Shown piece by piece: positions 30,412-50,296 of a stretch of 64,000 nt of DNA (the stretch's first letter is position 1; every line of letters starts with the position of its first letter). The stretch spans positions 1,404-65,403 of the forward strand of contig JBGSQF010000018.1 in assembly GCA_041738235.1 (NCBI GenBank). Direction: 5' to 3'. The DNA comes from Minisyncoccia bacterium. Its GTDB lineage: Bacteria; Patescibacteriota; Minisyncoccia; Moranbacterales; GCA-2747515. The position numbers were made by a program, and so were the translations under genes. The notes below the pieces were generated by a model. That model did no database searches, was not told where the DNA came from, and saw nothing but the letters and a program-made list of their open reading frames with translations.

Positions 30412-30572
30412 AAAGTCCAAGCAGAGGAAAAGAAGTGTGGGCGGGCTTTCAGCTCGCCCTTTTTTCTGTGTGGGGGAGACGCTTGCCAAAAGGGTATTTT
30501 CTGGTACAATCTTGGTTGTACTGTTTTGGTTTCGGTATGTTTTCCGAGCGGACAATTTTTTGCAAAATACAT

Positions 30573-30647
30573 TCCGGCGTGGCGCAGCGGTAGCGCAGGG
30601 GACTGTTAATCCCTTGGTCGTAGGTTCGAATCCTACCGCCGGAGCCA
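30573..30647 (+). tRNA. tRNA-Asn (anticodon GTT)
   Basis: Acceptor stem TCCGGCG/CGCCGGA. D-arm GCGC-AGCGGTA-GCGC. Anticodon stem GGGGA/TCCCT with loop CTGTTAA. T-arm GTAGG-TTCGAAT-CCTAC. CCA is encoded. Confidence 0.8.
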
Positions 30648-30756
30648 AGAAAAAACCACCTCCATTTTGGGGGTGGTTTTTCTTTGCTCTCCGTCGAGTA
30701 GGATGAGAAGTTTATACTCGGTAGCGTAGCGGACGGGTAAATCCTACCGCCGGAGC
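30640..30756. repeat. left 117-bp direct repeat (attL-like)
   Basis: Identical to 50075..50191. It begins in the last 8 nt of tRNA-Asn and ends with ATCCTACCGCCGGAGC, a copy of the tRNA 3' end. Confidence 0.85.
30654..30685 (+). terminator. intrinsic terminator after tRNA-Asn (inside the left direct repeat)
   Basis: AACCACCTCC-atttt-GGGGGTGGTT stem followed by TTTTTCTTT. Confidence 0.5.
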
Positions 30757-32348
30757 ATTTCAGGACAACGAGCCCAAAAAGGCTCGTTTTCCATTTTTAT
30801 AGAGCCATTTTTAGCGGTTCGAACACGCTCATTTTCTCGAGACAGGATTTTTTGCATTTTTTGAAATTGCGGATACGGTTTTTCCATTGTATAAGCGACT
30901 TTTCCGTCTTTTACGGAGAGGTTCGAACAAATCGTCCGCAATACCTCTTTTTTGCGCGCGGGATTCTTGGTTTGCGAAAAAGCGTCCCGTGCCGTCACCG
31001 CGAAATCGAAGGCGCGTTCCGTTTCGGTGATCCAATCGTCCATACTGCCGTCGATATTTTCCATCACTTTTTGCAATCGATTTTTTTCTTTTGACAGCGT
31101 TTCTTTTTTGATGCGAAATTCTTCTTCCGTTATCTCTCCGCCCGCCCGCATATCGATGATCGCGTCGATTTTCTTGCAACACCAATCATGCGCGCTCCGC
31201 TGATTGACCAACAAGGATTCCCGCATACCCGACTCCTCCCGATTTTCTTTTGCAATAATGCCCATCGCCCACTTGGCAAAGTCCGAAGGAAGGGCGACCG
31301 ATTCGACGATATTCGCCATCTGTCCCGCAAGGTCTTTTTCGTGCACCACACTTTGAGCGCATTTCGGAATACCTTTCTTTTTGACGCAGTGGTAATGCGT
31401 GTACAAACGCACCACCCCGTTTTTTTGCACTTTTCTCCGATACTCCGCTGTCATTGTTTGCCCGCATTCCCCGCATACCATAAGTCCCGTAAAGGGGAAA
31501 AGGTGTTTTTGCCTTCGGTCTTTCATTTTCCGCCCCAAAATAACTTGGATCTTTTCGTGTTCCTGTTTTGTGATCATCGGCGTATGCGCCCCTTTGTACC
31601 AATTCCCGCTCCCTTCGGGATATTCGAATTCCCCGTAAAAAAACGGATCGCTGAGCATATCGTACCACGCGGAGCGCGAAAGCGGTTTGCCGTTTTCTTT
31701 TCGAAGCCCCCATTCGTTCGTCGCGATTTCCAATACGCGAGATGCCGACTGCTCGCAAGAAAGCACTATTCGAAACATCTTTTGCACAAGAGGGAACGCC
31801 GTTTCGTCGGTTATAATCGTTTTAAATCCCTTTGCCTTGTCGGGCGTGTTTCTATAGCCCACGCGCGTTGTTCCCGGATGCCACCCCATTTCCGCCTTTC
31901 GCTTGAGTCCGCGCTTTACGTCCACGCCCTTGTTATCGTTTTCGAGTTTGGCCTGCGAACAAAACAGATTGAGCAGAAATTTGTCGTTCGGATCGTTTCG
32001 AAAAATTTGATTTATAGTGCGGACTTCCGAAAGTTTTCCCCGATCCATCAAGTCGATAATCGTTCCCGCATCGCCCGCGTTTCTCGAAAGCCGGTTGATA
32101 TTCCAAAGCAGTATCGCGTCGGCCTCTCTCTTTTCGATGCGATCGATCATTTTGTTGAAAAGGGGTCTCGCTCCGCGCGCTTTGGCGCTGTGCGACTCGC
32201 GGACGATTTCAACGACATTCATTCCGTCCGAAGCGATTACGGGGCGCAATTCCGCCTCTTGCGACTCAATGGACAGTGCCTGCCGATCCTCCGCCTCGCT
32301 CGACTTTCGAAGGTACACGATAAACCGCAAAGCATTTTTGGGAAGCAT
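30744..32348 (-). CDS. large serine recombinase
   Basis: 534 aa. Resolvase-type N-terminus (FIVYLRKSSEAEDRQALSIESQ), recombinase domain, zinc ribbon (CGECGQ...YHCVKKKGIPKC) and a coiled-coil C-terminus. The stop codon lies within the att core copy. Confidence 0.8.
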   Translation of the reverse strand: MLPKNALRFIVYLRKSSEAEDRQALSIESQEAELRPVIASDGMNVVEIVRESHSAKARGARPLFNKMIDRIEKREADAILLWNINRLSRNAGDAGTIIDLMDRGKLSEVRTINQIFRNDPNDKFLLNLFCSQAKLENDNKGVDVKRGLKRKAEMGWHPGTTRVGYRNTPDKAKGFKTIITDETAFPLVQKMFRIVLSCEQSASRVLEIATNEWGLRKENGKPLSRSAWYDMLSDPFFYGEFEYPEGSGNWYKGAHTPMITKQEHEKIQVILGRKMKDRRQKHLFPFTGLMVCGECGQTMTAEYRRKVQKNGVVRLYTHYHCVKKKGIPKCAQSVVHEKDLAGQMANIVESVALPSDFAKWAMGIIAKENREESGMRESLLVNQRSAHDWCCKKIDAIIDMRAGGEITEEEFRIKKETLSKEKNRLQKVMENIDGSMDDWITETERAFDFAVTARDAFSQTKNPARKKEVLRTICSNLSVKDGKVAYTMEKPYPQFQKMQKILSRENERVRTAKNGSIKMENEPFWARCPEMLRR

Positions 32349-32512: not shown

Positions 32513-33184
32513 TTATTTCAAGCAATCAAATCTCCGTGCCATACGGAAAAACGACTGTTCGAGCGAGTGTTCTTTTTTGAGGTAGGCGCGGTATTTCCGT
32601 GTCGGTTTTCCGCGATAGAAATACCGTCCGATTTTTTTCTCGCTTTCTTCCAAATCGGGGATCGTATACGCGTATCCGCAAATGCGCGAATCGTACGTCA
32701 ATTCGAGGCAGTGCCGGCACGCAAAATACGAACACCCTCCGCCCAGATACAATTTTGCGACTCTTCGTCCGCAGTAGATGCCGTTTTTGAGAATCGAACA
32801 TCGGAAAAAATACCGCCTCCCTCCGTATCGGCAGGGGAGGGAGACAATGGGATATTTTTGGCTTATTTCTCTCTTCTCCCCCGTTTGCCAATCGGTGACG
32901 GTGTAGTTGAGTTTCAAATACGACTCTTCCCCGTCCTCCCCGATGTTGATTGTATATCCGACACTGTTTTTTCTTTCGCTCCATCCGCTCGTCCACGTAA
33001 CCGTACCCGAAGCATACCCGACCAAAGATCCCCATCGCTTGAAATCGTAGATGCTTATCGTATGGCATTCTTCTTTTTGCAGTTTTCCCATATAACCGAA
33101 ATAATTAAAGATTGATACCGTTTCCCACCGAATCCCCGAATATGTCCAAAGCGTCTTCAAACAGTTGATCCGGTTTCGTTTCAT
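32513..33184 (-). CDS. Cys-rich (zinc-ribbon-like) hypothetical protein
   Basis: 223 aa with paired CxxC-type spacing (CRYGGRRYFFRC, CGRRV, CSYFACRHC). No family recognised. It overlaps the 3' end of the upstream ORF by ~80 nt, so the start is uncertain. Confidence 0.3.
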   Translation of the reverse strand: MKRNRINCLKTLWTYSGIRWETVSIFNYFGYMGKLQKEECHTISIYDFKRWGSLVGYASGTVTWTSGWSERKNSVGYTINIGEDGEESYLKLNYTVTDWQTGEKREISQKYPIVSLPCRYGGRRYFFRCSILKNGIYCGRRVAKLYLGGGCSYFACRHCLELTYDSRICGYAYTIPDLEESEKKIGRYFYRGKPTRKYRAYLKKEHSLEQSFFRMARRFDCLK

Positions 33185-35360
33185 TTTTTACCCCACCCCC
33201 GCTCTCACGATTGTTTTCCGTTTCCTCGTCCCTTCCCGCGCACGGATAGATAAGTATCTTTCTTTTGTCCGAAGGATCGCGCTCTTGTTCCACCAATCCC
33301 GACGCTTCCAAAGGCGGGAGAATTTGTTGCCTGAAACGCCAATCTTCGAGAAAGCGTCCGTGCACTTCTTGATACTTTTTCAAAATCTCGTGCTTCCCAA
33401 GTCCCACGACAACGCTCAAACCCTCGTTTTTCTTTTGGAAGGCGGGGAGGATCACCGTTTTGTACACTTCGTACACGTACGGCGAGAGATTATACTCTTG
33501 GCTTTCGGAAATCGCTCCCCACAAAGAGACGGCTTCCCGCAAATCGTCCCCGTTTGCCGTGAGACAATTTCCGTTTCGTTTGCGAAACCACACGTTAAGG
33601 AGCGCAAACATCCGCACAAAGGCGATAAACCGCGCGATATCTCTCTGATGGCGCGGTTTGAGATGCGCCTTGCCCTCCAAAAAAATCTTTTCGATCTCTT
33701 CGGGAGAAGACAACATAATTTCGCCAATGTGTTCGTTCCGTATCGCCAAAAGGCGATCCATAAGAAGCGACCGCGCTGGATTTTCGTCGAGGATTTTTTG
33801 GTACGCCTCCGGATCGGTCTCGCGCAAAATCTTTTCGTGAATGCCAGCGCGCACCTTTTCGGGATCAGCTTCGGGAGAAAGCAAAAGAAATCGCGTCCCT
33901 TCCTGTTCGTCAATGAGAATCCCCGCACTGCAAAAAATGACCGCGGGAAATCCCTTGATAAAAATCGTTTTCGTTCGCATTCCGCTCTTTTGGCTTTTGT
34001 CCGTAATCTTGACTGTCATCTCTTTTTTGTCGTGAGAAAGAAGCGGGCGAAGCCGTTCCAAAAGTTGCGTATGCGGTTGATCGAGAAAAATCAAAATCTT
34101 TCGCGACAAATCGATCTCGATTCCGCCCCGTTCCTTGTTGTACACGCCCGCATCGTGAAAAAACGAAGTGGGGGAGCAATACCCGATTTCGATCACGTCC
34201 TCCGGGGGAAACAATTTTGCAATCTCCGTCGGGATGTAACTCTTTCCGGTGGAAGAGGGCGCATTCAAACTGATGTTTATTTGCGCCGATTCCGTATACG
34301 CCGAGAGTTCGCACAAAAACGTCGCCAATTTGTTGGAGTCGTCCTTTTTGATAGTAAGTCCCAACACGTCGAGAAGTTCTTTTGAGCCGATCGGAGAAAA
34401 TCGCGAAACGTCAATCGGCTCTTTTCCCCCCGCAAACGTCGCGAGGGCACGTAATTCCTCCGCGCTTCCTCCGCAGTCACCGAAATAGTTTGAGATGTCG
34501 CTTCCCTTGGGGAGCACCTCCGGCAACTCCGCCCGAAAGACGCTCGTTTGCGGAAGTTCTTCCGACAAGAGCGCAATCACCCGATCTGTGCCTTTCTGTC
34601 CCGCCTCGTCATTGTCAAAACACACCACAACGCGGGAAACCCGTACGAACGCCTCCGCCCATTCCCGCTTAAACGTACCCGCGCCCGCCGTCGAAGTCAC
34701 GGCGCAAAATCCCTTTTGGGACAACATCATCTGATCGAATTCCCCCTCGCAAATCCACACCTCGCCCGCCTCCGCGATGGACTCCTTTCCGTACAAAGAC
34801 GCTCCCGATCCGGTGGGATAAAACTTGTACTTGTCGGGATTCGTTTCTTCCTCCGCGGGGTCTCGGCGCAATTTGAGAAACGCCCATCCCCCCGTATCGT
34901 TGGGAACGGGAATCGTGATCCAATTTTTCCGGTAGAAACGGCCATACCCGATCTTTTGCTTCTCGATTGTTTCGTCCGTGATGCCCCGACCGTTGAGATA
35001 CGTCCGAATTCGCTCCGGTACACTCTCCGCGCACCGTTCCGCCACGCTCCCGTCGAATCGCGCGGGACTTTTGCGTGTCGTGACCTTCTCGCCCCCGATC
35101 GGACTCCGCGCCACGTCGCCGGGCGTATCTCCCAACGCCTTGGCAAGGGTAAAGATATTTCCCGACGCATTGCATTTCTTGCAATGATATTGCCCTGTCT
35201 CGCTTGAAAGATATAAATGCCCCTCTGCGCCCCGACTGTCCTTGTCGCATGCGCCGAACAAACACTTTGCGATAAGTTCCCCGTTGCTTTCTTTGAATGC
35301 GATACCTTTTTTCTCCAAATACTCCCGAATCGTTATCGTTTCCATACTGTTTTTTTGCAT
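33105..35360 (-). CDS. primase with P-loop NTPase domain (CHC2 Zn finger + TOPRIM + Walker-A domain)
   Basis: 751 aa. Zn finger CLFGAC...HCKKCNASGN. TOPRIM VWICEGEFDQMMLSQKGF and VVCFDNDEAGQKG. Downstream Walker A LNAPSSTGKSY. Confidence 0.7.
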   Translation of the reverse strand: MQKNSMETITIREYLEKKGIAFKESNGELIAKCLFGACDKDSRGAEGHLYLSSETGQYHCKKCNASGNIFTLAKALGDTPGDVARSPIGGEKVTTRKSPARFDGSVAERCAESVPERIRTYLNGRGITDETIEKQKIGYGRFYRKNWITIPVPNDTGGWAFLKLRRDPAEEETNPDKYKFYPTGSGASLYGKESIAEAGEVWICEGEFDQMMLSQKGFCAVTSTAGAGTFKREWAEAFVRVSRVVVCFDNDEAGQKGTDRVIALLSEELPQTSVFRAELPEVLPKGSDISNYFGDCGGSAEELRALATFAGGKEPIDVSRFSPIGSKELLDVLGLTIKKDDSNKLATFLCELSAYTESAQINISLNAPSSTGKSYIPTEIAKLFPPEDVIEIGYCSPTSFFHDAGVYNKERGGIEIDLSRKILIFLDQPHTQLLERLRPLLSHDKKEMTVKITDKSQKSGMRTKTIFIKGFPAVIFCSAGILIDEQEGTRFLLLSPEADPEKVRAGIHEKILRETDPEAYQKILDENPARSLLMDRLLAIRNEHIGEIMLSSPEEIEKIFLEGKAHLKPRHQRDIARFIAFVRMFALLNVWFRKRNGNCLTANGDDLREAVSLWGAISESQEYNLSPYVYEVYKTVILPAFQKKNEGLSVVVGLGKHEILKKYQEVHGRFLEDWRFRQQILPPLEASGLVEQERDPSDKRKILIYPCAGRDEETENNRESGGGVKNETKPDQLFEDALDIFGDSVGNGINL

Positions 35361-35602: not shown

Positions 35603-35768
35603 AGTGTTGTATTTTTTCTTGAATGTTTTCCCGCTCCGTCTCCCGAACGACCCGCACCAAACGCACGACCCTCTCGCCCGCCTCCCGCGCCTCCTCGTCG
35701 CTTAAAACGACCCCGAAACGGTTTTGGTACAGCGTCTTGAACGTTTGAATGTCGGCGTTGTCGAGCAT
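35577..35768 (-). CDS. small hypothetical protein
   Basis: 63 aa, acidic and Arg-rich. Confidence 0.25.
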   Translation of the reverse strand: MLDNADIQTFKTLYQNRFGVVLSDEEAREAGERVVRLVRVVRETERENIQEKIQHYENNTPAV

Positions 35769-35774
35769 ACGAAA

Positions 35775-38445: not shown

Positions 38446-38658
38446 ATGGAAAAAGAGCCCAAAGAGAGTCAAAAGATACCGGAACTTCTCACTCTCAAAG
38501 AAGCGTGTGAGATTTTGAAGTGTCATCCCAATACCCTCCGGCAATGGGACAAAAAGGGCATCCTCCCGGCCATACGAATAGGGGAGCGGAAGGCGAGAAG
38601 ATACAAGAAAGATGCTATACTGAAAATGCTTGAAGGGGAAAATAATTTTCCAAAATAA
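38446..38658 (+). CDS. excisionase-family (HTH_17/MerR-like) DNA-binding protein
   Basis: [45 protein letters not shown] matches the excisionase-family HTH pattern. Confidence 0.55.
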
Positions 38659-38672: not shown

Positions 38673-40643
38673 ATGAATATCATCGAATTGCTCCCAAAGG
38701 TTGTTTCCGAAGGAAAAAGAGAAGCCAATCGAACACTGGAATCACTTTCCGATTCGACAAGGCTCATGCTCCAGACCAACGAACTTGTCATTCCGTCGCG
38801 CGATTCCAATTATCACGATTTATTTTCCGAGCTTTCGAAAGCGGGTCAATTGGAGATAAAAACCGAAAACCTTTCTGATGCATCGTGGAAAAATCGTCTT
38901 GTCTATGGGGACAATTTGCTCGTGATGCAGGCGCTTCTCGCGGGAGACCAGGAAACAGGGATGCCGAGTATGCGGGGGCAAATTGATCTCATCTACATTG
39001 ACCCGCCATTTGACAGCAAGGCGGACTACCGAACAAAGGTAGAAATCCCAGGGGCAACACTCGACCAAAAGCCGACCGTCCTCGAACAATTTGCGTATGC
39101 CGATACGTGGGCGGGAGAGGTTAGTGGACAGCAGGTCAAGGGGACACTCGCATATCTGAAGTATCTCTATCCGCGCCTGGTGTTGATGCGGGAACTTCTC
39201 TCGGACAAGGGGTCAATCTATGTGCATCTCGATTGGCACGTCGGGCATTATGTGAAAATTATATTAGATGATATTTTTGGAAAGGATAATTTTAGGAATG
39301 AAATTATTTGGAAGTACACAGGAAGTAGAGCTCCGGATAAGGATTTTGCGAAAAAACACGACACTATATTTAGGTATTCAAAATCAGAAAATCGTAAGTT
39401 TTTCCCAATCTACACTGCGTATTCTGAGGGAACTATAGCGAGATTCAATCAAGAAGATGAGGACGGAAGATTCAAAATTACCTATCGCGACGGCAAGGAG
39501 TACAAAACTTATATGAAGGAGGGTAAGCCCCTTGAGGATGTTTGGATTATTGAACCTGAAAATTTGGATATTGAAGATATTTCAATATTGATGAAGAATG
39601 CAAAAGAAAATACAGACTACAATACACAGAAGCCATCCTTACTAATTGAGAGACTGATAAAATCAGCAACTGAAGAAGGGGATGTTGTCGCAGACTTCTT
39701 TATGGGCTCTGGGACAACTATGGCTGTTGCTGAGAGTTTGAAGAGAAAATGGATTGCTTCTGATATAGGAAAACCTGCAATAATGGTTTCTCGCAAGCGT
39801 TTGATTGATCAGGGGGCAAAGCCGTTTCTCGCGCAGTCCATCGGGGACTACCAGAAAGAACAGCTTCTCCAGACGATGGGGAGCAAATACCGCATCGGCG
39901 ATTTGGCGCAGGTGGTACTGGGACTTTTTGGCGGTTTGCCGTTTCCCGCGGAAGACAATCCGAACAAAAACCTTGGGTATCTCCCGCGCACCAAGCACCT
40001 CATTTACGTCGATTCGCCGAACAAGCTTTGTGGACTCTCGACGCTGAAACGGGCTCAGCAATTTCGGGAATCGCATCTCGGCGGATGGGACAAGGTGGTT
40101 GTGCTCGCGTGGAATTTCGTCTCTGATATCGGACAAATTATCGGGAGCCTGGGGGACAACCGTTTGGAAGTTCTCGTCATTCCTCCGGACTTGCTGGATA
40201 AGCTTTCGAGCAAATCGAACTATGACAAACTCGTAAAATCCGGTGCGGTGCGTTTTTCTTCTTTGCAGTATTTGACCATAAAAGAACCGACCGTTTCCGA
40301 TATCGATGGCGAAGACGAGATTTGTGTCGAGCTGGACAATTATATGCTCCTCTCTCCCGATTCTTTACCTCTTGACGATGCGAACAAAGCGAAATTGCAG
40401 GAAGTTGTTGCAAAAAATCCGCTCGACCTTATCGAATATTGGAGTGTCGATCCCGATTATGACGGAGAGATTTTTCGCAGTGTCTGGCAGGATTATCGGG
40501 GAAATACCGAAAACGACGACGATCCGCTTCGCGTGGTGAAAACAGCGACGATTCGCGTCCCGAAAAAAGAGGGTGTGCGAAAGATATGCGTCAAGGCGGT
40601 GGATGTTTTCGGTTGGGAATCGGAGGTGGTGCGGGAAGTATAA
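38673..40643 (+). CDS. mod: Type III restriction-modification Mod-like DNA methyltransferase (beta-class N6A/N4C)
   Basis: 656 aa. Motif [11 protein letters not shown] lies near the N-terminus and motif [10 protein letters not shown] is distal, with a middle target-recognition region. A DEAH-box Res-like gene follows. Confidence 0.7.
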
Positions 40644-40654
40644 TTTTGGAGCGT

Positions 40655-42295
40655 ATGACATTTGACGAATTGAAACAATTTATTGCCCATCGCGAATCCG
40701 AAAGGCTTGAACTTAAGGAATGGAGGAGTTCATTTTCGATTCTCGGTGAGGGAAAGTTTGAAAATCGGAAATGTTTGCTTGGGTACTGCGTTGCGCTTGG
40801 CAATGAGGGTGGAGGATACGTGCTTATCGGGGTGAAGAATGACGGAACGATTGTTGGTACGAGCGCGGTGTTGCCGGATGATGTAAAGAAGCAAATATAT
40901 GACAGAACCGGACAAAAAATAGAAATCGAAGAAATTTTTGATGGGAGTAAACGAGTGCTTGCGGTGAGTATTCCTTCGAGACCAATGGGAACTCCTCTAA
41001 AATTTGCCGAAGTGCCTTTGATGAGGGTAGGTGATTCGCTGGAACCAATGAGCGACGCGGAGCAAACGCGGATTCTTCTTGAGGGGCAGGATGATTTTTC
41101 GGTGCGGATATGCGAAGCGTCGTCGATGGAAAGTGTCGATGGGGATGCCTTACGGAAATTGCGTGAACTGCGTGTCGAGAAGCAATCGGATATTGATGGG
41201 GCGGTCGAAGGGCTTTCCGACGAGCGTTTTTTGACAGATATTGCTCTGATGCGTAACGGGAAACTGACATACGCGGGAGTTATTCTGATCGCGAAAAAAG
41301 AGTTTCTCGATTGGAATTTCGGAGATGTTGAAATTTGTTTCGAGTACCGCAATCGTTTTGGTGACGAACAGTCAAGAAATGATCGCGTGAATTACCGCGA
41401 GCCGTTCGTACTGGCATACGAGAAGATCTGGGAAAAGGTGGTCTCCCGTCAACAAACGCATTCTTTCGTTTCAGGCTTGCTTCGTGAGGAGATTCCGGCG
41501 TTCGATCGGGATGTTTTTCGGGAGGCGTTATTTAATGCCGTGTGTCATCGAGATTATTCTCAAAAAGGATCGGTTGTTATTATCCAATCGCCCGAAGGTA
41601 TAGAAATTACGAACCCGGGAGGATTCCCGCCGGGGGTTACACAAGAAAACATCATTGATGTCGCAAGCACCCCGCGCAATCGATTATTGGCGGAGAGGTT
41701 TGAGAAGATTTTACCGGGTGTCGAACGGTCCGGTTGGGGCGTGGACAGGATTTTTCGTTATACGATTCAACAGGGAAAAGGTCGTCCCGATTATTCGGGA
41801 AGTACCGGGTATTTTGTCCGTCTTTTTATTCCGGCGATACTCAAGGATGCGCAATTCGTTCAGTATCTCAAAAAGATTGCCGATAGAAAACAAAAGTTGC
41901 TGTCGATCGAAGACCTTCTCTTATTGGAAAAAATACGCGCCGGGGAAAAAACCGGAATCACGTTGAAAACAGTCGGGCATCTTCTGGAGGAAGGATTTAT
42001 AGAACTGTATGGAAAAACACGCGGGGCGCGGTACGTGCTTTCGCACAGGTATTATGCCGATACGGGGAAACTGGGTGAACGAACGCGAAGAATTGGTCTT
42101 TCACGGGATAAGCGCAAGGAGTTAATCTTGGAGCACATACGAAAGCATGGGGAGGGGAGGATGTCGGAATTTATGCAGATCTTTCCGGAATTGAAACGAT
42201 ATGAGATTGGTAATATGCTTATGGAGCTCAAAAAAGATAATAAGATTGAAAAATCCGGGGTGACGGCAAATGCATTATGGAAAATAGTTGTATAA
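40655..42295 (+). CDS. AlbA_2 (Schlafen-like) + HATPase_c_4 domain protein
   Basis: N-terminus ESERLELKEW...YCVALGNEGGGYVLIGVKNDGTIVG is AlbA_2-like. The C-terminal region NAVCHRDYSQKGSVVIIQSPEGIEITNPGG is HATPase_c_4-like. Start taken at Met 40655. Confidence 0.5.
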   Translation: MTFDELKQFIAHRESERLELKEWRSSFSILGEGKFENRKCLLGYCVALGNEGGGYVLIGVKNDGTIVGTSAVLPDDVKKQIYDRTGQKIEIEEIFDGSKRVLAVSIPSRPMGTPLKFAEVPLMRVGDSLEPMSDAEQTRILLEGQDDFSVRICEASSMESVDGDALRKLRELRVEKQSDIDGAVEGLSDERFLTDIALMRNGKLTYAGVILIAKKEFLDWNFGDVEICFEYRNRFGDEQSRNDRVNYREPFVLAYEKIWEKVVSRQQTHSFVSGLLREEIPAFDRDVFREALFNAVCHRDYSQKGSVVIIQSPEGIEITNPGGFPPGVTQENIIDVASTPRNRLLAERFEKILPGVERSGWGVDRIFRYTIQQGKGRPDYSGSTGYFVRLFIPAILKDAQFVQYLKKIADRKQKLLSIEDLLLLEKIRAGEKTGITLKTVGHLLEEGFIELYGKTRGARYVLSHRYYADTGKLGERTRRIGLSRDKRKELILEHIRKHGEGRMSEFMQIFPELKRYEIGNMLMELKKDNKIEKSGVTANALWKIVV

Positions 42296-42388
42296 AAGTT
42301 GTATTATTATTTTCTTGATAAATGCTTTATAAAAAGCATAAAATATACATTTCTTATATAAAACCCCCTTTTTATTAAATGATTATTT

Positions 42389-45274
42389 TTGAATATGGCG
42401 AATTCATCACCTCTCCAATTTGCAAAGGATATTTCCGCAAAGGCCAATAATGCCTGGCTTTCCGGTGAGTATCTTGAGCGGGTTACCCCAACGACAAGAC
42501 AGCTTTTGACGTATTGGTTTGGCGACCAATACTGCGAAAATCGAGGATTGAATTTTCACGAGGGACAACGACAGGCAATTCTGAATATCATTTATTTGCA
42601 CGGGGTGCTCAAGACAAAAAATATCTTCGACGCGTATGAGCAAATTGCGCCGGATCTTTTGCTTCGAAGTGAAGGGGGACTTGCCGAAATATCGAAAACA
42701 AAATACAGTCATCCGAAATATGCGATAAAGATGGCAACGGGAACGGGCAAGACCTGGGTGCTTTCGGCAACACTGATTTGGCAGTATCTCAATGCCAAAC
42801 ATGAAGAGGGGAACTTTACGAAAAACTTTCTTATAGTCGCTCCCGGGCTTATAGTATACGAACGACTTCTTGATGCATTCCTTGGTAAAGAGCGCGAGGG
42901 GAGTGATGGAAGGGATTTTGAATCTTCCGATATTTTTCATACACAGGATCTTTTTTTGCCGGAATCGTACCGAGAAGAGATTTTTGGTTTTTTCAAATCA
43001 TCGGTCGTTGTCAAAGAAGAAATCGGCAGTAAGGTTACCGGTGACGGCCTGGTCGCCGTGACGAACTGGCACCTCCTCGCGGGCGTTGCCGAAGATGCCT
43101 CGGAAGAAATTGAATCGCCCGGCGAAATCGACCCTGTGAGCATGATGAAATCAATTCTCCCGACTCGCCCAAGCGCCAGTGCGGGCAATGATTTGAATGT
43201 GCTTGATAATTCGTATGGACAGGGAAAAGAACTCGCATATCTTCGTGATCTGCCTGATTTGATGGTATTTAATGATGAGGCACATCATTTGGCGTCGAAC
43301 AAAAAAGAAGAAAAGCATTGGCAGAAAAGTTTGTCGCATATTGCTGAAACAAAAGGTGAACATTTCGTTCAAGTAGATTTTTCAGCCACTCCGTACGACC
43401 AGATAGGAAAGAATAAAGTATATTTTCCTCATATTATCGTTGATTTTGAGCTGAAGACAGCGATTCAAAAGGGGTATGTGAAGACGCTCGTTCTTGACCG
43501 AAGGAAGGAAATTGCATCGATGGAGCTTGATTTTAGAGCAGAACGAGATGAGAGTGGAAAGGTTATCGGACTTTCCGAAGGACAGCGTGTGATGCTTCGT
43601 GCGGGTTTGAAAAAACTCCAAATTCTTGAGGCGGATTTTGAGAAGATTGCGCCAGAACGAGACAAGTACCCGAAGATGATGATTGTTTGTGAAGATACGA
43701 AGGTGGCGCCATTTGTCAGTGAATTTCTGGTGCACGAAGGATTGTCAGAGGGGGATGTACTTGAAATTCACTCTGATAAAAAAGGAAATGTAACAAAGGA
43801 AGCGTGGTTGGAAATTAAAAATAAACTGTTTCATTTGGATGAGCACAAGTCTCCAAAAGTTATTGTTTCGGTGCTTATGCTCCGCGAAGGTTTTGATGTG
43901 AATAATATCTGCGTCATTGTTCCGCTCCGTTCCTCGCAGGCTCCTATCCTTCTTGAGCAGACAATTGGGCGGGGGTTGCGTCAAATGTGGCGTGAGTCGG
44001 AGTTTAAGGAAATGAAAGAAGAGAATAGGAGGAGAATGCTTGTGGAAAAAACGAGTCCGCAGAATTACTTTGATATTTTGAGTATTATTGAACATCCATC
44101 TTTTGTCGGTTTTTACGATGAGCTCATGCAGGATGATATGGCTGGCATGGATGACACGGATATTATTGAGGGAGAGGATGTTACTGGGGATATTATCTCG
44201 GTTGGTTTGCGACCCGGATATGAGCAATACGATTTTATGTTTCCTGTAATAGTGAGCGAGGCGGAAGAAGTCATAAAAGAAAAGAAACTCTCTGTTGATG
44301 ATCTTAGCCCCTTTCAGAATGCGAGCTTCGAACAACTTAAGAAGATGGTGAAAGCGGGAGAACAATTTGTATCGCAAGAGATGACGAAAGGCACTCGATT
44401 CGGAGATTATAGTGTGAGTGGTGGAATAATGACCGCTACAAGTTATAACGAGTTTGTTTCCAGGCTCGTCAACCGTGTGACGGTGTTACTCTCGGAACCT
44501 GTTTCCGGACGACATCTCAAGGAGCAAACAAAATTTCCGGCAATCCAAGTAAAACTTCCGGAGCTTGCCGGTTTGGTGGACGGGTATATTCGAAGAAGAC
44601 TCTTTAATCAGGAGGTTGATCCATTTATTGATGAAAATTGGCGAATTTTAATGGTCAATTTGGTTGCAGACCATATCATCCGTGAGGTATCAACTGCCAT
44701 CCTAAAGCTTCAAGAAACGGAGTCAATAAGTGAGCCGGAAGTGATAGAGCGTAAGGTTTCTGAAGTAGCATCACTTCGGATGCGCGAGAGTTATTCATTT
44801 CCGACAAGTAAATCTGTCTATGAGAGGCTCCCATATCCGTCTCGAAATGGTGGTCTGGAGAAAGGTTTTATCGAATATGCGGATTCAGATGCAACAGTAG
44901 AGTCTTTTGTAAAGCTCCTTGTAGAAAAGCATTATTTCATTCGTTTTCGATATCTGAAAGAGGATGGGCTTATGGCGCAATATTACCCTGATTTTTTAGT
45001 GAGATGCAATAATGGAAAAATCTATATTGTAGAAACGAAAGCGCAAGATCAAATCAGTCACCCGAACGTACAGAAAAAACAGATTTCCGCACTCAATTGG
45101 ATTGACCGGGTAAACGCCCTTCCTTCTGAGATGCGAAGGAATGCTACTTGGGAGTATGTACTTATCGGAGACACATTCTTCAATGATTGGAGAAATAAGG
45201 GTGCATCTATTGTTGAAATGCTGGAGTTTGCAAAATTGAGAGCGGTACAGAGAGGCCAATCAAAATTGTTATAG
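42389..45274 (+). CDS. res: Type III restriction enzyme Res subunit (SF2 helicase + PD-(D/E)xK nuclease)
   Basis: 961 aa. Walker A MATGTGKTWV and a DEAH box VFNDEAHHL. The C-terminus YYPDFLV...IYIVETKAQD looks like a PD..ExK nuclease motif. Confidence 0.7.
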   Translation: MNMANSSPLQFAKDISAKANNAWLSGEYLERVTPTTRQLLTYWFGDQYCENRGLNFHEGQRQAILNIIYLHGVLKTKNIFDAYEQIAPDLLLRSEGGLAEISKTKYSHPKYAIKMATGTGKTWVLSATLIWQYLNAKHEEGNFTKNFLIVAPGLIVYERLLDAFLGKEREGSDGRDFESSDIFHTQDLFLPESYREEIFGFFKSSVVVKEEIGSKVTGDGLVAVTNWHLLAGVAEDASEEIESPGEIDPVSMMKSILPTRPSASAGNDLNVLDNSYGQGKELAYLRDLPDLMVFNDEAHHLASNKKEEKHWQKSLSHIAETKGEHFVQVDFSATPYDQIGKNKVYFPHIIVDFELKTAIQKGYVKTLVLDRRKEIASMELDFRAERDESGKVIGLSEGQRVMLRAGLKKLQILEADFEKIAPERDKYPKMMIVCEDTKVAPFVSEFLVHEGLSEGDVLEIHSDKKGNVTKEAWLEIKNKLFHLDEHKSPKVIVSVLMLREGFDVNNICVIVPLRSSQAPILLEQTIGRGLRQMWRESEFKEMKEENRRRMLVEKTSPQNYFDILSIIEHPSFVGFYDELMQDDMAGMDDTDIIEGEDVTGDIISVGLRPGYEQYDFMFPVIVSEAEEVIKEKKLSVDDLSPFQNASFEQLKKMVKAGEQFVSQEMTKGTRFGDYSVSGGIMTATSYNEFVSRLVNRVTVLLSEPVSGRHLKEQTKFPAIQVKLPELAGLVDGYIRRRLFNQEVDPFIDENWRILMVNLVADHIIREVSTAILKLQETESISEPEVIERKVSEVASLRMRESYSFPTSKSVYERLPYPSRNGGLEKGFIEYADSDATVESFVKLLVEKHYFIRFRYLKEDGLMAQYYPDFLVRCNNGKIYIVETKAQDQISHPNVQKKQISALNWIDRVNALPSEMRRNATWEYVLIGDTFFNDWRNKGASIVEMLEFAKLRAVQRGQSKLL

Positions 45275-45389: not shown

Positions 45390-45893
45390 ATGCTCAAGAG
45401 TTTAATTCCTAATCTTAAAAATATGGATATTCAAACAAAAGTTGGAGTTATAGTAACAAACGAGAGGGGGGATATTCTTCTTATTAAGGAAAAGCTGGAG
45501 AAGAAACCGGTCTCTCTTTGGAATATCATTAAGGGGTCATATCAGGGAGGAGAGAGTGTCATGCAGGCAGCAATAAGAGAATGCACGGAAGAGGCTTCTG
45601 TGGACGTGGATCTTTTGTTTTCTTTGGGAACATATATTGCAGAAGAGCCGGGTAAAATCAGGGTGCAGTTTAATTTTTTAGCTCGATCTAAATCTGACAT
45701 CATTGCTCTGGCGTCGGAAAAAGATCAACAGTCAAGAGGTGAGGCGATCGAAGATGCTCGCTGGCTTACAAGGGAAGATGTAGAGAAAATTGGAAAAGAA
45801 GAATTTGCTTCATTAAGAGCATATCAGCTTGTTCAGGACTGGTTGTCTGGAAAAGAGTTTCCTATAGATTCTGTTCAACAGGTTGCCATGTAG
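45390..45893 (+). CDS. NUDIX hydrolase
   Basis: NUDIX box GGESVMQAAIRECTEEASV. Confidence 0.5.
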   Translation: MLKSLIPNLKNMDIQTKVGVIVTNERGDILLIKEKLEKKPVSLWNIIKGSYQGGESVMQAAIRECTEEASVDVDLLFSLGTYIAEEPGKIRVQFNFLARSKSDIIALASEKDQQSRGEAIEDARWLTREDVEKIGKEEFASLRAYQLVQDWLSGKEFPIDSVQQVAM

Positions 45894-45961
45894 AAGAAGA
45901 CAAATAACCAAAAGAAAAAGAGTCATGTTGATGACTCTTTTTAATTATGCCCTCCTAAATA

Positions 45962-46741
45962 TTAGGGACGGCTTATTCTGAGTATGAGTGTTTTGTGAAG
46001 CCTGTTTCCGTTGGCATCTTGTAGGAAGGAGTATCCGGGGTACATCCTCTTGATCCAAGGGATGTTTTCCTCGGTCTTTCCTCCTGGTCGGATGGTTTGG
46101 CTGTGCCTCGAAATAACCTCCATTCGAAGTCCAAGGGACTGGATTAGCTCGGCTAGCGGCACCCTTCCCAAGTCTTGGTCAATGCCAAGAAAGTCGAAAC
46201 ACAATAGAATGAGCTGCCCATGTCGCGCAAGCAGTCTCTGACTATGTCGGATAATGCCTTTGATATACGCTCTTCCATCCTCGCTTCCTCCATAGTCATG
46301 CGGATGTCCTCTTGTGGGCATGGGCATTTGGGGGGGGTTGCTGACGATCGTGTCGAAGGATTTCCGTACTAGATCCTTAGGAACAAGATCACAGCACACC
46401 CAGGAGATACCCCGTGCTTTATTTGATGCAGTTCTTGCCCAGGACAGGGAGCTCTGATCAATGTCTGTCGCGGTTATATGGGTGGCTCCAAGCGCGATCA
46501 AGCAGTTCGCCAGAAATCCCGATTCTCCCGTTCCGATGTCTAGTGCGCGACTTCCAATGTCTAATTTCTTTAGTTCCTGAGCGATTAGGAATCCGCTTTT
46601 TGGAACGTAGCCACCGTTCCTTATATTTATGCGTAACCCAAGCTCTTTGGACGTAAGGAGAAAGGGACTCCCTACAAATTGGTGGAGAATAAAGCCCTCA
46701 GAGGGAACGGACTTGGCGTACAAGTTCGTTGAACCGCTCAT
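45962..46741 (-). CDS. class I SAM-dependent methyltransferase (HemK/N6-MTase-like, NPPQ motif)
   Basis: Motif I ALDIGTGESGFLA. Motif IV IVSNPPQMP. Start taken at the internal Met (46741). Confidence 0.5.
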   Translation of the reverse strand: MSGSTNLYAKSVPSEGFILHQFVGSPFLLTSKELGLRINIRNGGYVPKSGFLIAQELKKLDIGSRALDIGTGESGFLANCLIALGATHITATDIDQSSLSWARTASNKARGISWVCCDLVPKDLVRKSFDTIVSNPPQMPMPTRGHPHDYGGSEDGRAYIKGIIRHSQRLLARHGQLILLCFDFLGIDQDLGRVPLAELIQSLGLRMEVISRHSQTIRPGGKTEENIPWIKRMYPGYSFLQDANGNRLHKTLILRISRP

Positions 46742-47582
46742 ATTCTCCAAGGCCTTTGATTGCCATAACGGTTGAGGAGTAGCCATAGGGACCTCTTTTG
46801 GCGCTAATTAGGTCGAGAGGCTCCATGGGGAAGAAATATGTACTGTGGATACGAAACGGTGTTGCAATGAAGACCATCAGATCTTCTGCCCACCGTAAGT
46901 TATCCATGGAGTAACAAGGTCTTTCCCCATAGAGGGTTTTTAGGAGGGCAAGCTTTCTTTTTGACGCAATGAGGTTGGTCGGCATGTATCCGGATATATC
47001 ATCCTTGACAATATCCTTAAACAAATCCCGACTCTCTTGCCTAGTTATAAAGCATGAGAACTCCTCCCGGGAATAGTTTCTGGCATAGCGAGCGAACGCG
47101 GATGCACTGATAGGGCAATCCCTTATTTCAAGATCGCGTTCAAAATCTACAAGCCAGATAGTGTCTTCATGCTCGCTCCAGATCATGTTTCTTGGGGCAA
47201 AGTCTCCCCATAGAAAACCATGCGTCCTGAATGTGTGGAGTATGTCCCCAATCAAATGAAGCATGGAGTGTCTTTCTGTTCCAATAGACTCTCTGAGCAT
47301 TGCCTCGAGGTTTTTGCCGGTATGTAGGAGTGTGGAAAGCGCCCCCCATGTCTCATCCCACCCACATATCTCTACAACCTGCACACGAATGGTACCATGT
47401 GGCGCAAACTCGATCTCCATAGGATGCTTATTGAGGTGTTCGTGGGCAGAAAGAATATTCCTATATTCCTTGCCACATGTTGATTTCTTGACGGTCATCC
47501 TACCGTCAGGTGTAACCGATATTTCAATCCGATTAGAATCGAATGATAGGACATTGGGCATGGTTTTCTCCTGCCGGTGCAA
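46698..47582 (-). CDS. protein-kinase-like fold phosphotransferase (APH/Kdo-kinase-like)
   Basis: Catalytic-loop-like GFLWGDFAPRNMIW and a DFG-equivalent WLVDFERD. Confidence 0.45.
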   Translation of the reverse strand: MHRQEKTMPNVLSFDSNRIEISVTPDGRMTVKKSTCGKEYRNILSAHEHLNKHPMEIEFAPHGTIRVQVVEICGWDETWGALSTLLHTGKNLEAMLRESIGTERHSMLHLIGDILHTFRTHGFLWGDFAPRNMIWSEHEDTIWLVDFERDLEIRDCPISASAFARYARNYSREEFSCFITRQESRDLFKDIVKDDISGYMPTNLIASKRKLALLKTLYGERPCYSMDNLRWAEDLMVFIATPFRIHSTYFFPMEPLDLISAKRGPYGYSSTVMAIKGLGEYERFNELVRQVRSL

Positions 47583-47587
47583 TGAAG

Positions 47588-48463
47588 TTACAGGGCATAT
47601 CCCAATTTTCTGTACGCCTCAGCAAGGTCTTTCTGTGCAAAAAGGTCTTTTTCTTGTTGAGTAAGACCATCTTGCCAGGTGATGTCTTGACGTATTTCTT
47701 GATTGGAATCGTACATCATGTGGTTTCCCATGAGGAGATGACCCTTATTCCTCTTAAACTCCAACATAGCAGGATCAAAGCGGATGTCGATAAAGTCGCA
47801 TATCCGCGATAATTCTCCAGCTACATCTTTGCAAAGATCCTCGTATCGGACAAGCAATACGTTTTCTTGCAGGGTCATTTCTGCAGCCTGTCTTGCAAAA
47901 GACAAGAGGATTCCCATTTTGTCTTTTACTGGTCGAGGAACCCCTTTTCTCTCCCCAGCATTCCTATTGCTAAATGAAATCCCCCTTGGATCTCGAGTAA
48001 GCAGTAGGATTTTCCAACCATTTCTAGATAGTAGTTGTTCGGCTATCGTTAAGTATTTTGAGTTTTCAACGATAACTCGCGTCCCAAAGACTTCTTGGGC
48101 AACTGACGAGATCACCTCAAGTCCTAAACAGCATTGCTTGAGGACTTGCTCCAACATGGGCAAGCTTGGTTGTTCAGCGGATAGGCTGAGCTGGTGCCGG
48201 ATCTTTCCTGGCTCTGCCAGAACATCAAGCATGCCACATGCTTGATGTATGGCAAGAATTTCGTCTGGGAAGTAGGACAGTTTTCTTTGTATGGAGTACA
48301 GTACTTCGCATCCAACAGTGCCACAGCAACATCTTGAAGCTGAAGCATCAATCATCGACCAATAGGCGGATTCGCCCATATGGGTTACGTTTTTATGCGC
48401 ACCAAGCATCATGCCAAGGAGTGTTGACCCAGACCTTGGGAGTGTTGCTATGTAGGCTTTCAT
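47588..48463 (-). CDS. sulfotransferase-family protein
   Basis: N-terminal 5'-PSB-like motif ATLPRSGSTLL. Confidence 0.55.
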   Translation of the reverse strand: MKAYIATLPRSGSTLLGMMLGAHKNVTHMGESAYWSMIDASASRCCCGTVGCEVLYSIQRKLSYFPDEILAIHQACGMLDVLAEPGKIRHQLSLSAEQPSLPMLEQVLKQCCLGLEVISSVAQEVFGTRVIVENSKYLTIAEQLLSRNGWKILLLTRDPRGISFSNRNAGERKGVPRPVKDKMGILLSFARQAAEMTLQENVLLVRYEDLCKDVAGELSRICDFIDIRFDPAMLEFKRNKGHLLMGNHMMYDSNQEIRQDITWQDGLTQQEKDLFAQKDLAEAYRKLGYAL

Positions 48464-48630
48464 CGAGTTTAACCTCTTGATAGATTGTAAAAGAACAGCT
48501 GTGAATAATACTAACTATTGTGGCAGTTGTCAATAGTGGGCTCTTGCAAAATTTACCATTTTATGCTAATTGTTTCTTACAGTTCTTTTAAGCCAATCCA
48601 TCAAACCCAATATGTGCGAGGTTCTGTTTC

Positions 48631-49905
48631 ATGAAGATCTCTTTTGGTCTCGATTTCGGCACCACCAACTCGGTCCTGGCGATAGCACGGAGTAGCGGCG
48701 TAACAATCGCCGATATCAATCCGAACGGCCAGCCGACCAGTACGCTCAAGTCAGTCCTTTTTTTTGACGAAGAGGGAGGGGTTGATATCGGCCAAGAAGC
48801 CATTGAGCAATACATCTCTTACGGTGGTGCATATGGCCGATTCATGCAGTCCATCAAGGCCTTCCTGCCGAACAGGGGCTTTACCGAAACGTACGTCTAT
48901 AAGAAACGCTATGAGATTGAGGATCTCGTTGCGCTCATCCTGAAAGCGATCAAACACCGTGGCGAGCTCCAGGTCAGGCATGTCGTAGACACGGTATTTT
49001 TGGGACGCCCGGTAGTTTTTTCGGACGATCCAGAGCTTGACCTTCTTGCGGAAGAGCGGTTGCGAACGGCGGCTTTGCGTTCGGGGTTTACGAACGTGCA
49101 TTTTGTGTACGAGCCGATCGCGGCAACCCTTGCCTACGAATCCCGTCTCCCGGAGGGAAAGGAACGCCTAGTATTCATGGGGGATTTTGGAGGGGGCACA
49201 TCGGACTTTGTAGTCATGCGCCTTCGTGGCGGTAAACGTGACCCGAAAGAAAGCCGCGATAACGATATTCTAGCCACCGGCGGTGTGTACGTTGCGGGGG
49301 ATGCCTTTGATGCCTCCATTATGTGGCACAAGCTGACCAAGTATTTTGGAAAGGACGCCAAGACCCGCGGAATGTCGAATCAAATTCTCGATACCCCGAC
49401 TTGGATTTTCCGCACCTTGTGTCAATGGCATATGATCCCGCAGCTCCGCGATCGAAAAACGCTGAGCACGATCCGGTCGCTTATCGGGGTGACGGAGGAT
49501 GATCGGATGGCGCTGAGCAGGTTACAGGCGTTTATCGTCGAGAATCTCGGATACATGCTGTTCCGAGAGATCGAGCGGGCAAAGCGTGGACTTTCCGAAA
49601 GCGAGTCCGAAGCCATCGGCTTTTCCGAGAAGGATATCGAAATCTTGGAAGCCATTACGCGAGAGGAATTTGAGGAAATGGCGGACGATCGCTTCCGGGA
49701 GATAAGCGCTTGTGTGGACGAGACGCTGTCCAGATCTGGTGTCGGGTATGGAGACATCGATGCAGTACTTCTAACCGGAGGATCATCGTTCATCCCAAGA
49801 ATCAGAAGGATTTTCTCGGATAGATTTGGGGAGGAAAAAATCCTGCCCATAGACGCCTTCACGAGCGTGGCCTACGGTCTCGGTCTGAGCGCAATGAAGT
49901 ACTAA
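48631..49905 (+). CDS. Hsp70/actin-superfamily ATPase (NBD only; YegD-like)
   Basis: Phosphate-1 MKISFGLDFGTTNSVLA, GGGTSDFVVMR, and phosphate-2/adenosine motif LLTGGSSFIPRIRRIF. 424 aa with no substrate-binding domain. Confidence 0.6.
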   Translation: MKISFGLDFGTTNSVLAIARSSGVTIADINPNGQPTSTLKSVLFFDEEGGVDIGQEAIEQYISYGGAYGRFMQSIKAFLPNRGFTETYVYKKRYEIEDLVALILKAIKHRGELQVRHVVDTVFLGRPVVFSDDPELDLLAEERLRTAALRSGFTNVHFVYEPIAATLAYESRLPEGKERLVFMGDFGGGTSDFVVMRLRGGKRDPKESRDNDILATGGVYVAGDAFDASIMWHKLTKYFGKDAKTRGMSNQILDTPTWIFRTLCQWHMIPQLRDRKTLSTIRSLIGVTEDDRMALSRLQAFIVENLGYMLFREIERAKRGLSESESEAIGFSEKDIEILEAITREEFEEMADDRFREISACVDETLSRSGVGYGDIDAVLLTGGSSFIPRIRRIFSDRFGEEKILPIDAFTSVAYGLGLSAMKY

Positions 49906-50074
49906 ACCCATATTTCTGGGTTGGCCTCGGCAGTAATGCTTCCGAGGTTTCTTTTTTATATAGAGACATGTACTATTGAATTAATAAAATGAGAGAAAGA
50001 GACGATGGAGACAGTAGAAACTATGCAATGCATAGTTTCTTGTTTTCCTACATTACCCAAGCGTTCCGAACATC

Positions 50075-50191
50075 GTCCAGCATTCGGAGCCAAGAAAAAA
50101 CCACCTCCATTTTGGGGGTGGTTTTTCTTTGCTCTCCGTCGAGTAGGATGAGAAGTTTATACTCGGTAGCGTAGCGGACGGGTAAATCCTA
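50075..50191. repeat. right 117-bp direct repeat (attR-like)
   Basis: Identical to 30640..30756. It carries the same terminator hairpin and the tRNA 3'-end-like core. Confidence 0.85.
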
Positions 50192-50296
50192 CCGCCGGAG
50201 CTAAGATAAAAGAGGCTAAGATAAACATCTTTTTTGTTACTCGCAATGGATGTTAGAACCTGATATAATGAATGAAAATTATTTTGTAGTTTTTTT

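Follow-up and report, generated by a model that had tools for sequence, protein, structure and literature searches.

A probable serine-integrase element at the 3′ end of tRNA-Asn in a Minisyncoccia bacterium, and the 117-bp direct repeat that flanks it

Introduction

Two identical 117-bp direct repeats, the first of which begins inside the 3′ end of a tRNA-Asn gene, enclose about 19 kb of DNA with a recombinase gene in the genome of a Minisyncoccia bacterium (GenBank assembly GCA_041738235.1, contig JBGSQF010000018.1, positions 1,404 to 65,403 of the forward strand; this stretch of 64,000 nucleotides is hereafter called the window, and all coordinates refer to it). Is such a repeat the attachment (att) site at which the element recombines, as a preliminary description of the window had assumed, or does the element end elsewhere, and how did the repeat then arise?

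We propose, with fair confidence, that the window contains a 19,334-bp integrative element directly downstream of dnaG-sigA-tRNA-Asn, that its att cores are the hexamers CGGAGC at 30751-30756 and 50085-50090, and that the 117-bp repeat consists mostly of duplicated host-side DNA. The proposal draws on homologous elements in other genomes and metagenomes, on the family of large serine recombinases (LSRs) to which the recombinase of the element belongs, and on the way in which the integrase reading frame runs across its own recombination site.

Structure of the repeat

A repeat finder detected a two-copy family of 117 nt with 100% identity at 30640-30756 and 50085-50201, with a start-to-start spacing of 19,445 nt, and direct reading of the sequence confirmed the perfect repeat adjoining tRNA-Asn; a repeat of this kind cannot have originated by chance within 64 kb. 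Its second copy had been placed at 50075-50191 in the preliminary description, which is 10 bp too low, while the anatomy given there was borne out. The repeat starts in the last 8 nt of tRNA-Asn(GTT) (tRNA 30573-30647, repeat from 30640), includes a terminator-like hairpin downstream of the tRNA (30651-30681, followed by a T-run), and ends in a second copy of the tRNA 3′ end, the 17-nt sequence AATCCTACCGCCGGAGC at 30740-30756, within which the stop codon of the recombinase is located (30744-30746). This 17-mer occurs three times, at 30629-30645 (the end of the tRNA itself), 30740-30756 and 50185-50201.

If k denotes CGGAGC and M the 105 nt between cores, the locus reads tRNA-k-M-k-[element]-k-M-k-flank, in the gene order dnaG, sigA, tRNA-Asn, element, NUDIX. 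The end of the tRNA and the bases downstream of it form an unoccupied attB-type site, composed of the tRNA arm, CGGAGC at 30640-30645 and then caagaaaaaacc. The best matches of both SigA and the recombinase were named Moranbacteria, Moraniibacteriota, Minisyncoccia or Patescibacteria.

Proposed attachment sites of the element

The recombinase has the domain set of an LSR, with Pfam matches to PF00239 at residues 10-155 (E 6.5e-23), PF07508 at 186-271 and PF13408 at 285-340, and it matched a PHROG integrase (8.9e-60). Its matches in the PDB include the SPbeta and TP901-1 integrases: the catalytic domain matches those of both enzymes, and residues 251-477 align to SPbeta integrase. Across 30 homologs, R14, K15 and S16 were nearly invariant, and the zinc-ribbon cysteines C292, C295, C321 and C330 were invariant. 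No tyrosine recombinase (Phage_integrase domain) was found among the 18 open reading frames (ORFs) of the element that were scanned, leaving the LSR as the sole recombinase. The 'classic tRNA-targeting island architecture' first attributed to the locus, which implies a tyrosine integrase, does not apply to an enzyme with Resolvase, Recombinase and Zn-ribbon domains.

Two homologous elements at the same chromosomal position show what an integration junction of this kind looks like. In L005, whose SigA is 76% and LSR 74% identical to those of the window, the same backbone lies beside sigA and the LSR gene abuts a real tRNA-Asn (...ggttcgaatcctaccgccggagc/attcccggac, where the tRNA ends ...ccggagc/attcccggac). 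In L170 (SigA 68%, LSR 40%, primase 50% and restriction subunit Res 93% identical to the window), the one of the two for which the far end could be retrieved, the junctions are 19.6 kb apart and read CGGAGCAttgtaggac on the tRNA side and GGTTCTAAtagtgttcagtaggCGGAGCAaga (...GGTTCTAAtagtgttcagtaggCGGAGCAagataagataagg) on the far side, so that the direct repeat is only 7 bp long, CGGAGCA. In a third relative, L088 (SigA 89% identical over the conserved core), tRNA-Asn is unoccupied and has its own terminator downstream. Nothing similar to the 111 extra bases of the repeat was present in L005, L170 or L088. The empty-site relatives foreseen in the preliminary description were found in part: a related species has an unoccupied tRNA-Asn at the same position, and the collections searched contained none of the same species. 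A scan of genome contigs with SigA as the query returned mostly distant taxa and no empty site of the same species or genus; in the closest species representative (L007, 75% identity), as in L087, sigA is not followed by a tRNA-Asn.

Both junctions of the window carry the arms expected from these relatives. The right arm next to the LSR, ATTTCAGGAC, is made up of the LSR 3′ end and then a bidirectional terminator (30767-30788), and the same attL-type junction, ...aatcctaccgccggagc followed by att(c/g)..ggac, occurs in L005 and L170, where the arm on the other side is the real tRNA. At the far end, an element-side arm and core of the form GGTTCnAAC(A/G)TCGTCCA-N5-CGGAGC is located at 50062-50090, with the arm directly to the left of the second repeat copy. 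Because homologous elements overlap their targets by only a few base pairs and because this family arm abuts the second repeat copy, we infer that the repeat as a whole is not an att core: it combines a 6-bp core with a host-side unit of 111 bp that occurs on either side of the element. In this unit, the trailer of the tRNA (with CCA and the terminator) is followed by 60 nt more and a 17-nt pseudo tRNA 3′ end. Of the original proposal, then, a mobile element of about 19 kb with a recombinase beside tRNA-Asn is retained, and the repeats as its att core are not.

On this basis the LSR would recombine the very 3′ terminus of tRNA-Asn with a short attP composed of the left arm GGTTCnAACATCGTCCA, five further bases, the core CGGAGC and the right arm ATTTCAGGAC. 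As read directly from the sequence, the reconstructed attP has a GTCC-N18-GGAC symmetry centred on the GA of CGGAGC, and because of this symmetry we place the crossover inside the hexamer, probably at the central GA. The element would occupy the middle of three attB-like sites, with the tRNA end at 30640 and an ancestral junction at 50196 both unoccupied. Two routes of loss would follow: excision by the LSR would leave two tandem 111-bp units, and RecA recombination between the repeats would leave one. The empty site of tRNA-Asn plus one repeat copy that had been predicted earlier is accordingly to be expected only for loss by homologous recombination.

The integrase gene itself supplies a further line of evidence. 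When positions 50090 and 30757 were joined in silico, the LSR grew from 534 to 544 amino acids with the tail MLRMLDDVRN, its ending changing from …CPEMLRR* to …CPEMLRMLDDVRNAWVM*. The joined tail of the window matches the ending …LRxL(D/E)(D/E)VRT… of homologs in the attP state. Because the left arm of the window still encodes this conserved tail in frame, we take the true attP to be 50090 joined to 30757; on sequence grounds, the in-frame tail is strong evidence for an attP that lacks the 117-bp block. The integrase gene thus appears to contain attP within its 3′ end and to exchange its tail on integration. Among the best 120 of 6289 homologs (E<=1e-10), ~65 have tails antisense to a tRNA T-arm (…DSNPRP…), ~29 stop at the core like the enzyme of the window, and ~12-17 have the attP-type tail. 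A tail that is truncated or tRNA-antisense after integration could act as a built-in switch, by which the activity or directionality of the integrase would differ between the free and the integrated element. The LSR is presumably still active.

An integrase family at tRNA 3′ ends

We scanned metagenome contigs of the Joint Genome Institute with an alignment of 30 homologs as the query and obtained 79 loci, including 48 full-length matches. In 23 of the 48 full-length loci, the LSR 3′ end overlaps the 3′ end of a tRNA gene on the opposite strand (Asn, Gln, Glu or Leu), and five further independent loci (L093, L097, L101/L102, L109, L123) abut a tRNA-Asn that contains an intron. No direct repeats of at least 14 nt were found around the 23 homologous LSR/tRNA junctions, which counts against long att identity in this LSR family. 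The overlaps that could be determined by sequence comparison are 5-8 bp (L126, L170, L110); L126 is a complete 7.3-kb element at tRNA-Asn with the 6-bp overlap GCGGAG.

The free attP state, recognised as left arm, 3-5 variable bases, tRNA-type core and LSR 3′ end, was found in 5-6 contigs (L098, L100, L118, L121/122 and L129, with an internal junction in L115). The family arm GGTTCTAAC(A/G)TCGTCCA-N5-core is present in L115, L118, L121/122, L126, L110, L098, L100 and L170, and it also precedes the far junction of the complete elements L126, L110 and L170. No terminal overlaps indicative of circular contigs were detected among the short homolog contigs.

The arm of attP resembles a tRNA T-arm with five inserted bases (GGTTCTA-ACATC-GTCC compared with GGTTCGA-(A/G)TCC). 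From the start of GGTTC(G/T)A to the end of the core, tRNA arms span 23 nt and attP left arms 28 nt (29 in the window). From the structure of the Listeria (LI) serine integrase it has been proposed that attB has the motif of the zinc-ribbon domain nearer to the crossover than attP does, by 5 bp (PMC3783163). The 23- and 28-nt spacings match an LI-type shift of 5 bp between attB and attP, as far as sequence comparison can tell. The universally conserved T-loop (GGTTCGA) appears to provide the outer motif of the half-site and the acceptor stem to determine specificity, an arrangement that would permit switching among tRNA-Asn, Gln, Glu and Leu. Whether these features extend to a very large LSR clade across Patescibacteria, specialised on tRNA 3′ ends, with a T-arm-mimicking attP that encodes the integrase tail and with tail exchange as a possible switch, we can suggest only tentatively.

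This LSR clade was not described in the open-access literature that we searched. What stands out at the level of the family are serine integrases on tRNA 3′ ends, an attP that mimics a T-arm and the exchange of the tail; the locus itself we rate as an ordinary integrated element with an unusual duplicated target.

As a side observation on the tRNA targets, the tRNA-Asn(GTT) gene of L005 (11742-12033, minus strand) has its anticodon loop interrupted by a group I intron of ~290 nt. The intron matched Rfam Intron_gpI over the full-length model with 42.6 bits (E 2.7e-9), below the gathering score of 50, and its exon boundaries fit U/…G/ (slashes mark the boundaries). The tRNA-Asn genes next to LSR 3′ ends in the five loci listed above likewise carry a group I intron, and ARAGORN missed these genes, that of L005 included. 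The tRNA-Asn of the window has no intron.

Origin of the duplicated unit

If the element ends at the two cores, the 111-bp unit on either side requires its own explanation. The flank after 50201 is significantly similar to the host-side arm of the L170 attR (local score 27, shuffle mean 12.4, reached by 0 of 2000 shuffles), and M shows no similarity to that arm. Because the flank, and not M, resembles the L170 arm, we regard M as added DNA and the third 17-mer with its flank as the ancestral tRNA-end/flank junction. BLAST comparison of the 117-bp repeat, the right flank and the right end of the element with more than 170 loci (170+) returned only the tRNA 17-mer and a relic of a left arm, and the 105-nt unit M had no homolog among the same loci. 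The relic, GGTTCTAACATCC, is inverted, lies shortly beyond the second repeat copy, and has exact 14-nt matches to the left arms of L110 and L115, with ~0.002 expected by chance in the window; it probably stems from another integration at the same hotspot.

These observations bear on the possibility that the locus is a decayed array of two elements, in which an earlier element, integrated through AATCCTACCGCCGGAGC as a 17-bp core in the manner of tyrosine-integrase islands, left the 111-bp unit behind. Three copies of the 17-mer, with the ancestral flank after the third, imply that all DNA between the first and third was inserted, and arrays and remnants are common at homologous sites: in L110, at tRNA-Glu, left arm plus core occurs twice at a distance of 565 bp (2370-2935) downstream of one element, and in L115, at tRNA-Gln, a second LSR gene is joined to the first element through an attP-type junction (~529-560), to which the relic at 50249-50262 of the window may be added. 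Such a remnant would account for one 111-bp copy, not for two copies of 100% identity around an LSR element, and the unit has neither a match in the fetched loci nor the arm features of the LSR family. We regard this history as possible though not favoured, and it complements the proposed boundaries rather than competing with them. The narrower idea that the 111-bp unit is a remnant of an element of the LSR family itself was rejected, as the unit contains neither left-arm nor right-arm motifs.

M could thus be a relic of an older integration through 17-bp identity, which accounts for one copy; two identical copies need one more event. Four candidates can be named. M might have been duplicated in tandem by unequal exchange between the flanking 17-mers, followed by integration of the LSR element in the middle site; the element might have integrated at the tRNA, with subsequent unequal exchange and loss of one of the element copies by excision; recombination might have taken place between two integrants at different sites; or a circle that had acquired M might have integrated by Campbell-type homologous recombination.

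Alternative structures of the locus

The preliminary description had the mobile unit as 19,445 bp including one repeat, with crossover anywhere in the 117-bp identity, by the recombinase or by RecA, and loss leaving tRNA-Asn plus one repeat copy. The perfect repeats do flank the element exactly, repeats of 117 bp are efficient RecA substrates, and long identity blocks are known for some tRNA-targeting elements such as SLP1. Moreover, Logan contigs always join both ends of the element to the repeat, and no k-mer path for a canonical attP was present in those runs. LSRs, on the other hand, use short sites, and the overlaps in this family are 5-8 bp; L005 and L170 have nothing that resembles the repeat; and the attP left arm, with the in-frame integrase tail, lies outside the repeat at its left edge, a position that is sensible only if attP joins 50090 to 30757. 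We therefore consider exchange across the whole repeat unlikely.

Reads assembled independently of the NCBI contig address whether the structure is an artefact. Two Logan contigs from two sequencing runs (L001, L002) run from the LSR 3′ end into the 17-mer and through the whole repeat, and a further one (L004) contains the right end of the element joined to the first 30 nt of the repeat. Because independent Logan contigs contain them, both inner junctions are real at k=31. An assembly duplication would mean that the chromosome has one repeat copy and that the element is a self-replicating circle with the identical 117 bp, its loop threaded in by the assembler. The graph topology of that arrangement is identical, the element encodes a primase/helicase, the element contigs of SRR28170474 are the larger ones, and the contigs of the left end cross the repeat edge without a chromosomal branch. 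It is nonetheless the least probable of the readings considered, since element and chromosome contigs are of similar size in SRR28170473, 117 bp are easily bridged by read pairs so that the 118-kb NCBI contig is probably pair-supported, in L005 and L170 the homologous elements are plainly inserted at this locus, and a free circle of the LSR family should carry the canonical attP and not host DNA.

The contig sizes that enter this comparison (L001, L002 and L004 for the element, L003, L090, L172 and L173 for the chromosome) were 8.8 and 6.4 kb for the element and 1.7-3.4 kb for the chromosome in SRR28170474, and 2.5 kb for the element and 3.6 and 2.9 kb for the chromosome in SRR28170473. Contig size as a proxy for the copy number of element relative to chromosome was set aside because the two runs disagree. 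The larger element contigs in SRR28170474 may hint at extrachromosomal copies, a weak lead. Scans of IMG/VR with exact patterns for the canonical attP junction (GTCCAGCATTCGGAGCATTTCAGGAC) and for M gave no matches.

Several observations weigh against the short-core boundaries that we favour. The de Bruijn graph is the same for the integrated form and for a one-repeat chromosome with a circle carrying the other copy, and the Logan contigs run from the left end of the element into the whole repeat with no branch to the chromosomal flank. Neither right-hand arm, element-side or host-side, has a recognisable motif for the zinc-ribbon domain. The intact tRNA end with GGTTCGA lies only 111 bp from the occupied site, whose tRNA-like arm is weaker (GGGTAAA); a recent integration would not be expected to show this. 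The left arm might be conserved solely through coding constraint on the integrase tail. Finally, the collections searched contained no empty site of the same species and no excised form, and thus no occupied/empty pair for this lineage.

Gene content and surroundings

The coordinates of the locus and of the genes of the element are collected in Table 1. By gene content the element is neither a prophage nor a conjugative element: Pfam, PHROGs and PADLOC returned integrase, primase, excisionase-like and restriction-modification genes and cargo of metabolic type, but no virion or packaging genes (capsid, portal, terminase, tail), several ORFs being without assignment, and there were no Pfam matches to relaxase, coupling protein or type IV secretion genes. 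The backbone genes at 35393-38379 are syntenic with L001, L005 and L170. The HTH_17 excisionase-like protein is conserved in three elements (window, L005, L170). By its sequence it is a candidate regulator or directionality factor, the latter role being filled by more than one protein family among serine integrases.

The cargo includes a type III restriction-modification module that PADLOC recognised by MTase_III (6.2e-75) and REase_III (2.6e-29), with Mod and Res in one operon. The Schlafen AlbA_2/HATPase_c_4 gene between Mod and Res is atypical; Mod and Res are adjacent in the L005 and L170 elements. Res is 93-94% identical to proteins of other contigs from bacteria of the candidate phyla radiation (CPR), some named Gracilibacteria (P0242-P0246; L170 10001-12877). 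To judge from the 93% identity of Res to that of L170, compared with 68% for SigA, 50% for the primase and 40% for the LSR, diverged elements and hosts have evidently exchanged the module in recent times. The stretch that follows it (45390..49905) is replaced by other cargo in L170.

Table 1. Features of the tRNA-Asn locus and the element in the window
Feature	Position	Strand	Remarks
Promoter-like site of tRNA-Asn, TTGCCA-16-TACAAT with TG	30483..30510	+	Motif also upstream of tRNA-Asn in L005, L088
tRNA-Asn(GTT), intact, CCA encoded	30573..30647	+	ARAGORN; Rfam tRNA 71.4 bits
117-bp repeat copy 1: CGGAGC, 105-nt unit M (30646-30750), second CGGAGC	30640..30756	+	
Putative attL: pseudo-tRNA arm gggtaAATCCTACCGC, core CGGAGC 30751-30756, element-side right arm ATTTCAGGAC	~30731..30790	+	
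Large serine recombinase, 534 aa	30744..32348	-	Last codons (LRR + stop) cross the core into the tRNA-like 17-mer
Conserved backbone hypothetical protein (180 aa as called in Logan contigs)	32513..33184	-	No Pfam/PHROG match; syntenic in L005, L170
Toprim primase/helicase-like replication protein	33105..35360	-	Pfam Toprim_2; PHROG DNA primase, primase/helicase
Backbone genes: two small ORFs, DUF5659 protein (35775-36101), proteins of 332 and 396 aa	35393..38379	-	
HTH_17/MerR-type excisionase-like protein	38446..38658	+	PF12728 4e-13; PHROG 'excisionase and transcriptional regulator'
Type III restriction-modification cargo: Mod 38673-40643, Schlafen AlbA_2/HATPase_c_4 40586-42295, Res 42389-45274	38673..45274	+	
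Variable cargo: NUDIX	45390-45893	+	Pfam
Variable cargo: S-adenosylmethionine (SAM) methyltransferase	45962-46786	-	Pfam
Variable cargo: protein without assigned family	46698-47582	-	
Variable cargo: sulfotransferase	47588-48463	-	Pfam
Variable cargo: HSP70/actin-fold ATPase	48631-49905	+	Pfam
Putative attR: element-side left arm cGTTCCGAACATCGTCCAgcatt 50062-50084, core CGGAGC 50085-50090, host-type right arm caagaaaaaacc	~50050..50110	+	
117-bp repeat copy 2: core, M, core	50085..50201	+	
Third tRNA-3′-end copy, then taagataaaagagg	50185..50240	+	Read as ancestral tRNA-end/flank junction, second unoccupied attB-like site
Inverted relic like element-side left arm, GGTTCTAACATCC	50249..50262	-	47 nt beyond second repeat copy

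Some features of the surroundings may be recorded separately. A tRNA-Ser(GGA) gene at 20323-20410, ~10 kb upstream, is syntenic with L005; to the left of the element, the two organisms thus share a conserved chromosomal context. Ahead of region 1.1, the N-terminus of SigA is extended by a lysine-rich stretch of ~150 residues (28954-29400), and relatives differ in the length and sequence of this extension. An ORF of 61 amino acids at 49989-50174, which runs from the right end of the element into the repeat, has no family match and is probably spurious. An exact-protein look-up of the NUDIX protein of the right flank returned no record, and paralogy between it and the NUDIX protein of the element was rejected (E = 0.044 in one pairwise comparison).

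Implications

For annotation and for excision assays, the boundaries of the element on our reading are the two CGGAGC cores rather than the outer limits of the 117-bp repeat; perfect repeats of such length beside a tRNA gene are not automatically att cores. tRNA genes are regarded as targets of tyrosine integrases, and a clade with thousands of members in CPR bacteria would do the same job by serine chemistry. The logic of its att sites can be read from sequence, as the 5-bp motif shift predicted from LI with the tRNA T-arm as the motif. Nearly every genome would hold natural and predictable attB sites for such LSRs, and the clade would be a test case for the evolution of new serine-integrase specificities. 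The exchange of the tail across attP offers a testable hypothesis for directionality control, and the elements appear to move type III restriction-modification modules between diverged CPR hosts.

Comparison with known systems

The element shares with serine-integrase elements (Listeria A118/LI, SPbeta SprA, TP901-1, Bxb1, phiC31) the domain set of its recombinase, a short att overlap and a nearby excisionase-like protein. To our knowledge, characterised serine integrases target protein-coding or intergenic sites, whereas the family of the window targets the extreme 3′ ends of tRNA genes with an attP left arm that mimics a T-arm. As with the LI integrase, the outer half-site motif lies 5 bp nearer the centre in attB than in attP (PMC3783163; here by sequence comparison). 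Unlike in serine-integrase prophages, attP lies within the integrase ORF, whose tail is changed on integration, and the cargo is a restriction-modification module, not a phage genome.

With the islands and P4-like prophages of tyrosine integrases, the element has in common insertion at a tRNA 3′ end, a tRNA that stays intact and an integrase gene proximal to it, together with copies of the tRNA 3′ end as landmarks and the occurrence of arrays and remnants. It differs from them in having no tyrosine recombinase and an overlap of 6 bp in place of a tRNA segment of 15-60 bp; the repeats do not behave as a tRNA-derived identity block for crossover, and the junctions of the family place the crossover in CGGAGC. 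The SSV-type integrases of Sulfolobus viruses are tyrosine recombinases with attP inside the integrase gene, which is split in two upon integration into a tRNA gene. An att site within the integrase ORF, an integrase gene altered by integration and a tRNA target are likewise features of our element, whose enzyme is in contrast a serine recombinase that exchanges only its last 10-25 codons.

The tycheposons of Prochlorococcus are similar in their association with tRNA genes, their own primase/helicase and their variable cargo. Among 937 tycheposons and cryptic elements, an LSR was reported in all but 910, and the great majority of tycheposons have tyrosine recombinases (10.1101/2020.12.28.424599). 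The host phylum and the backbone of the element in the window differ from theirs. As judged from its sequence, the element is mechanistically a serine-integrase integrative element that occupies the niche of the tRNA islands of tyrosine integrases.

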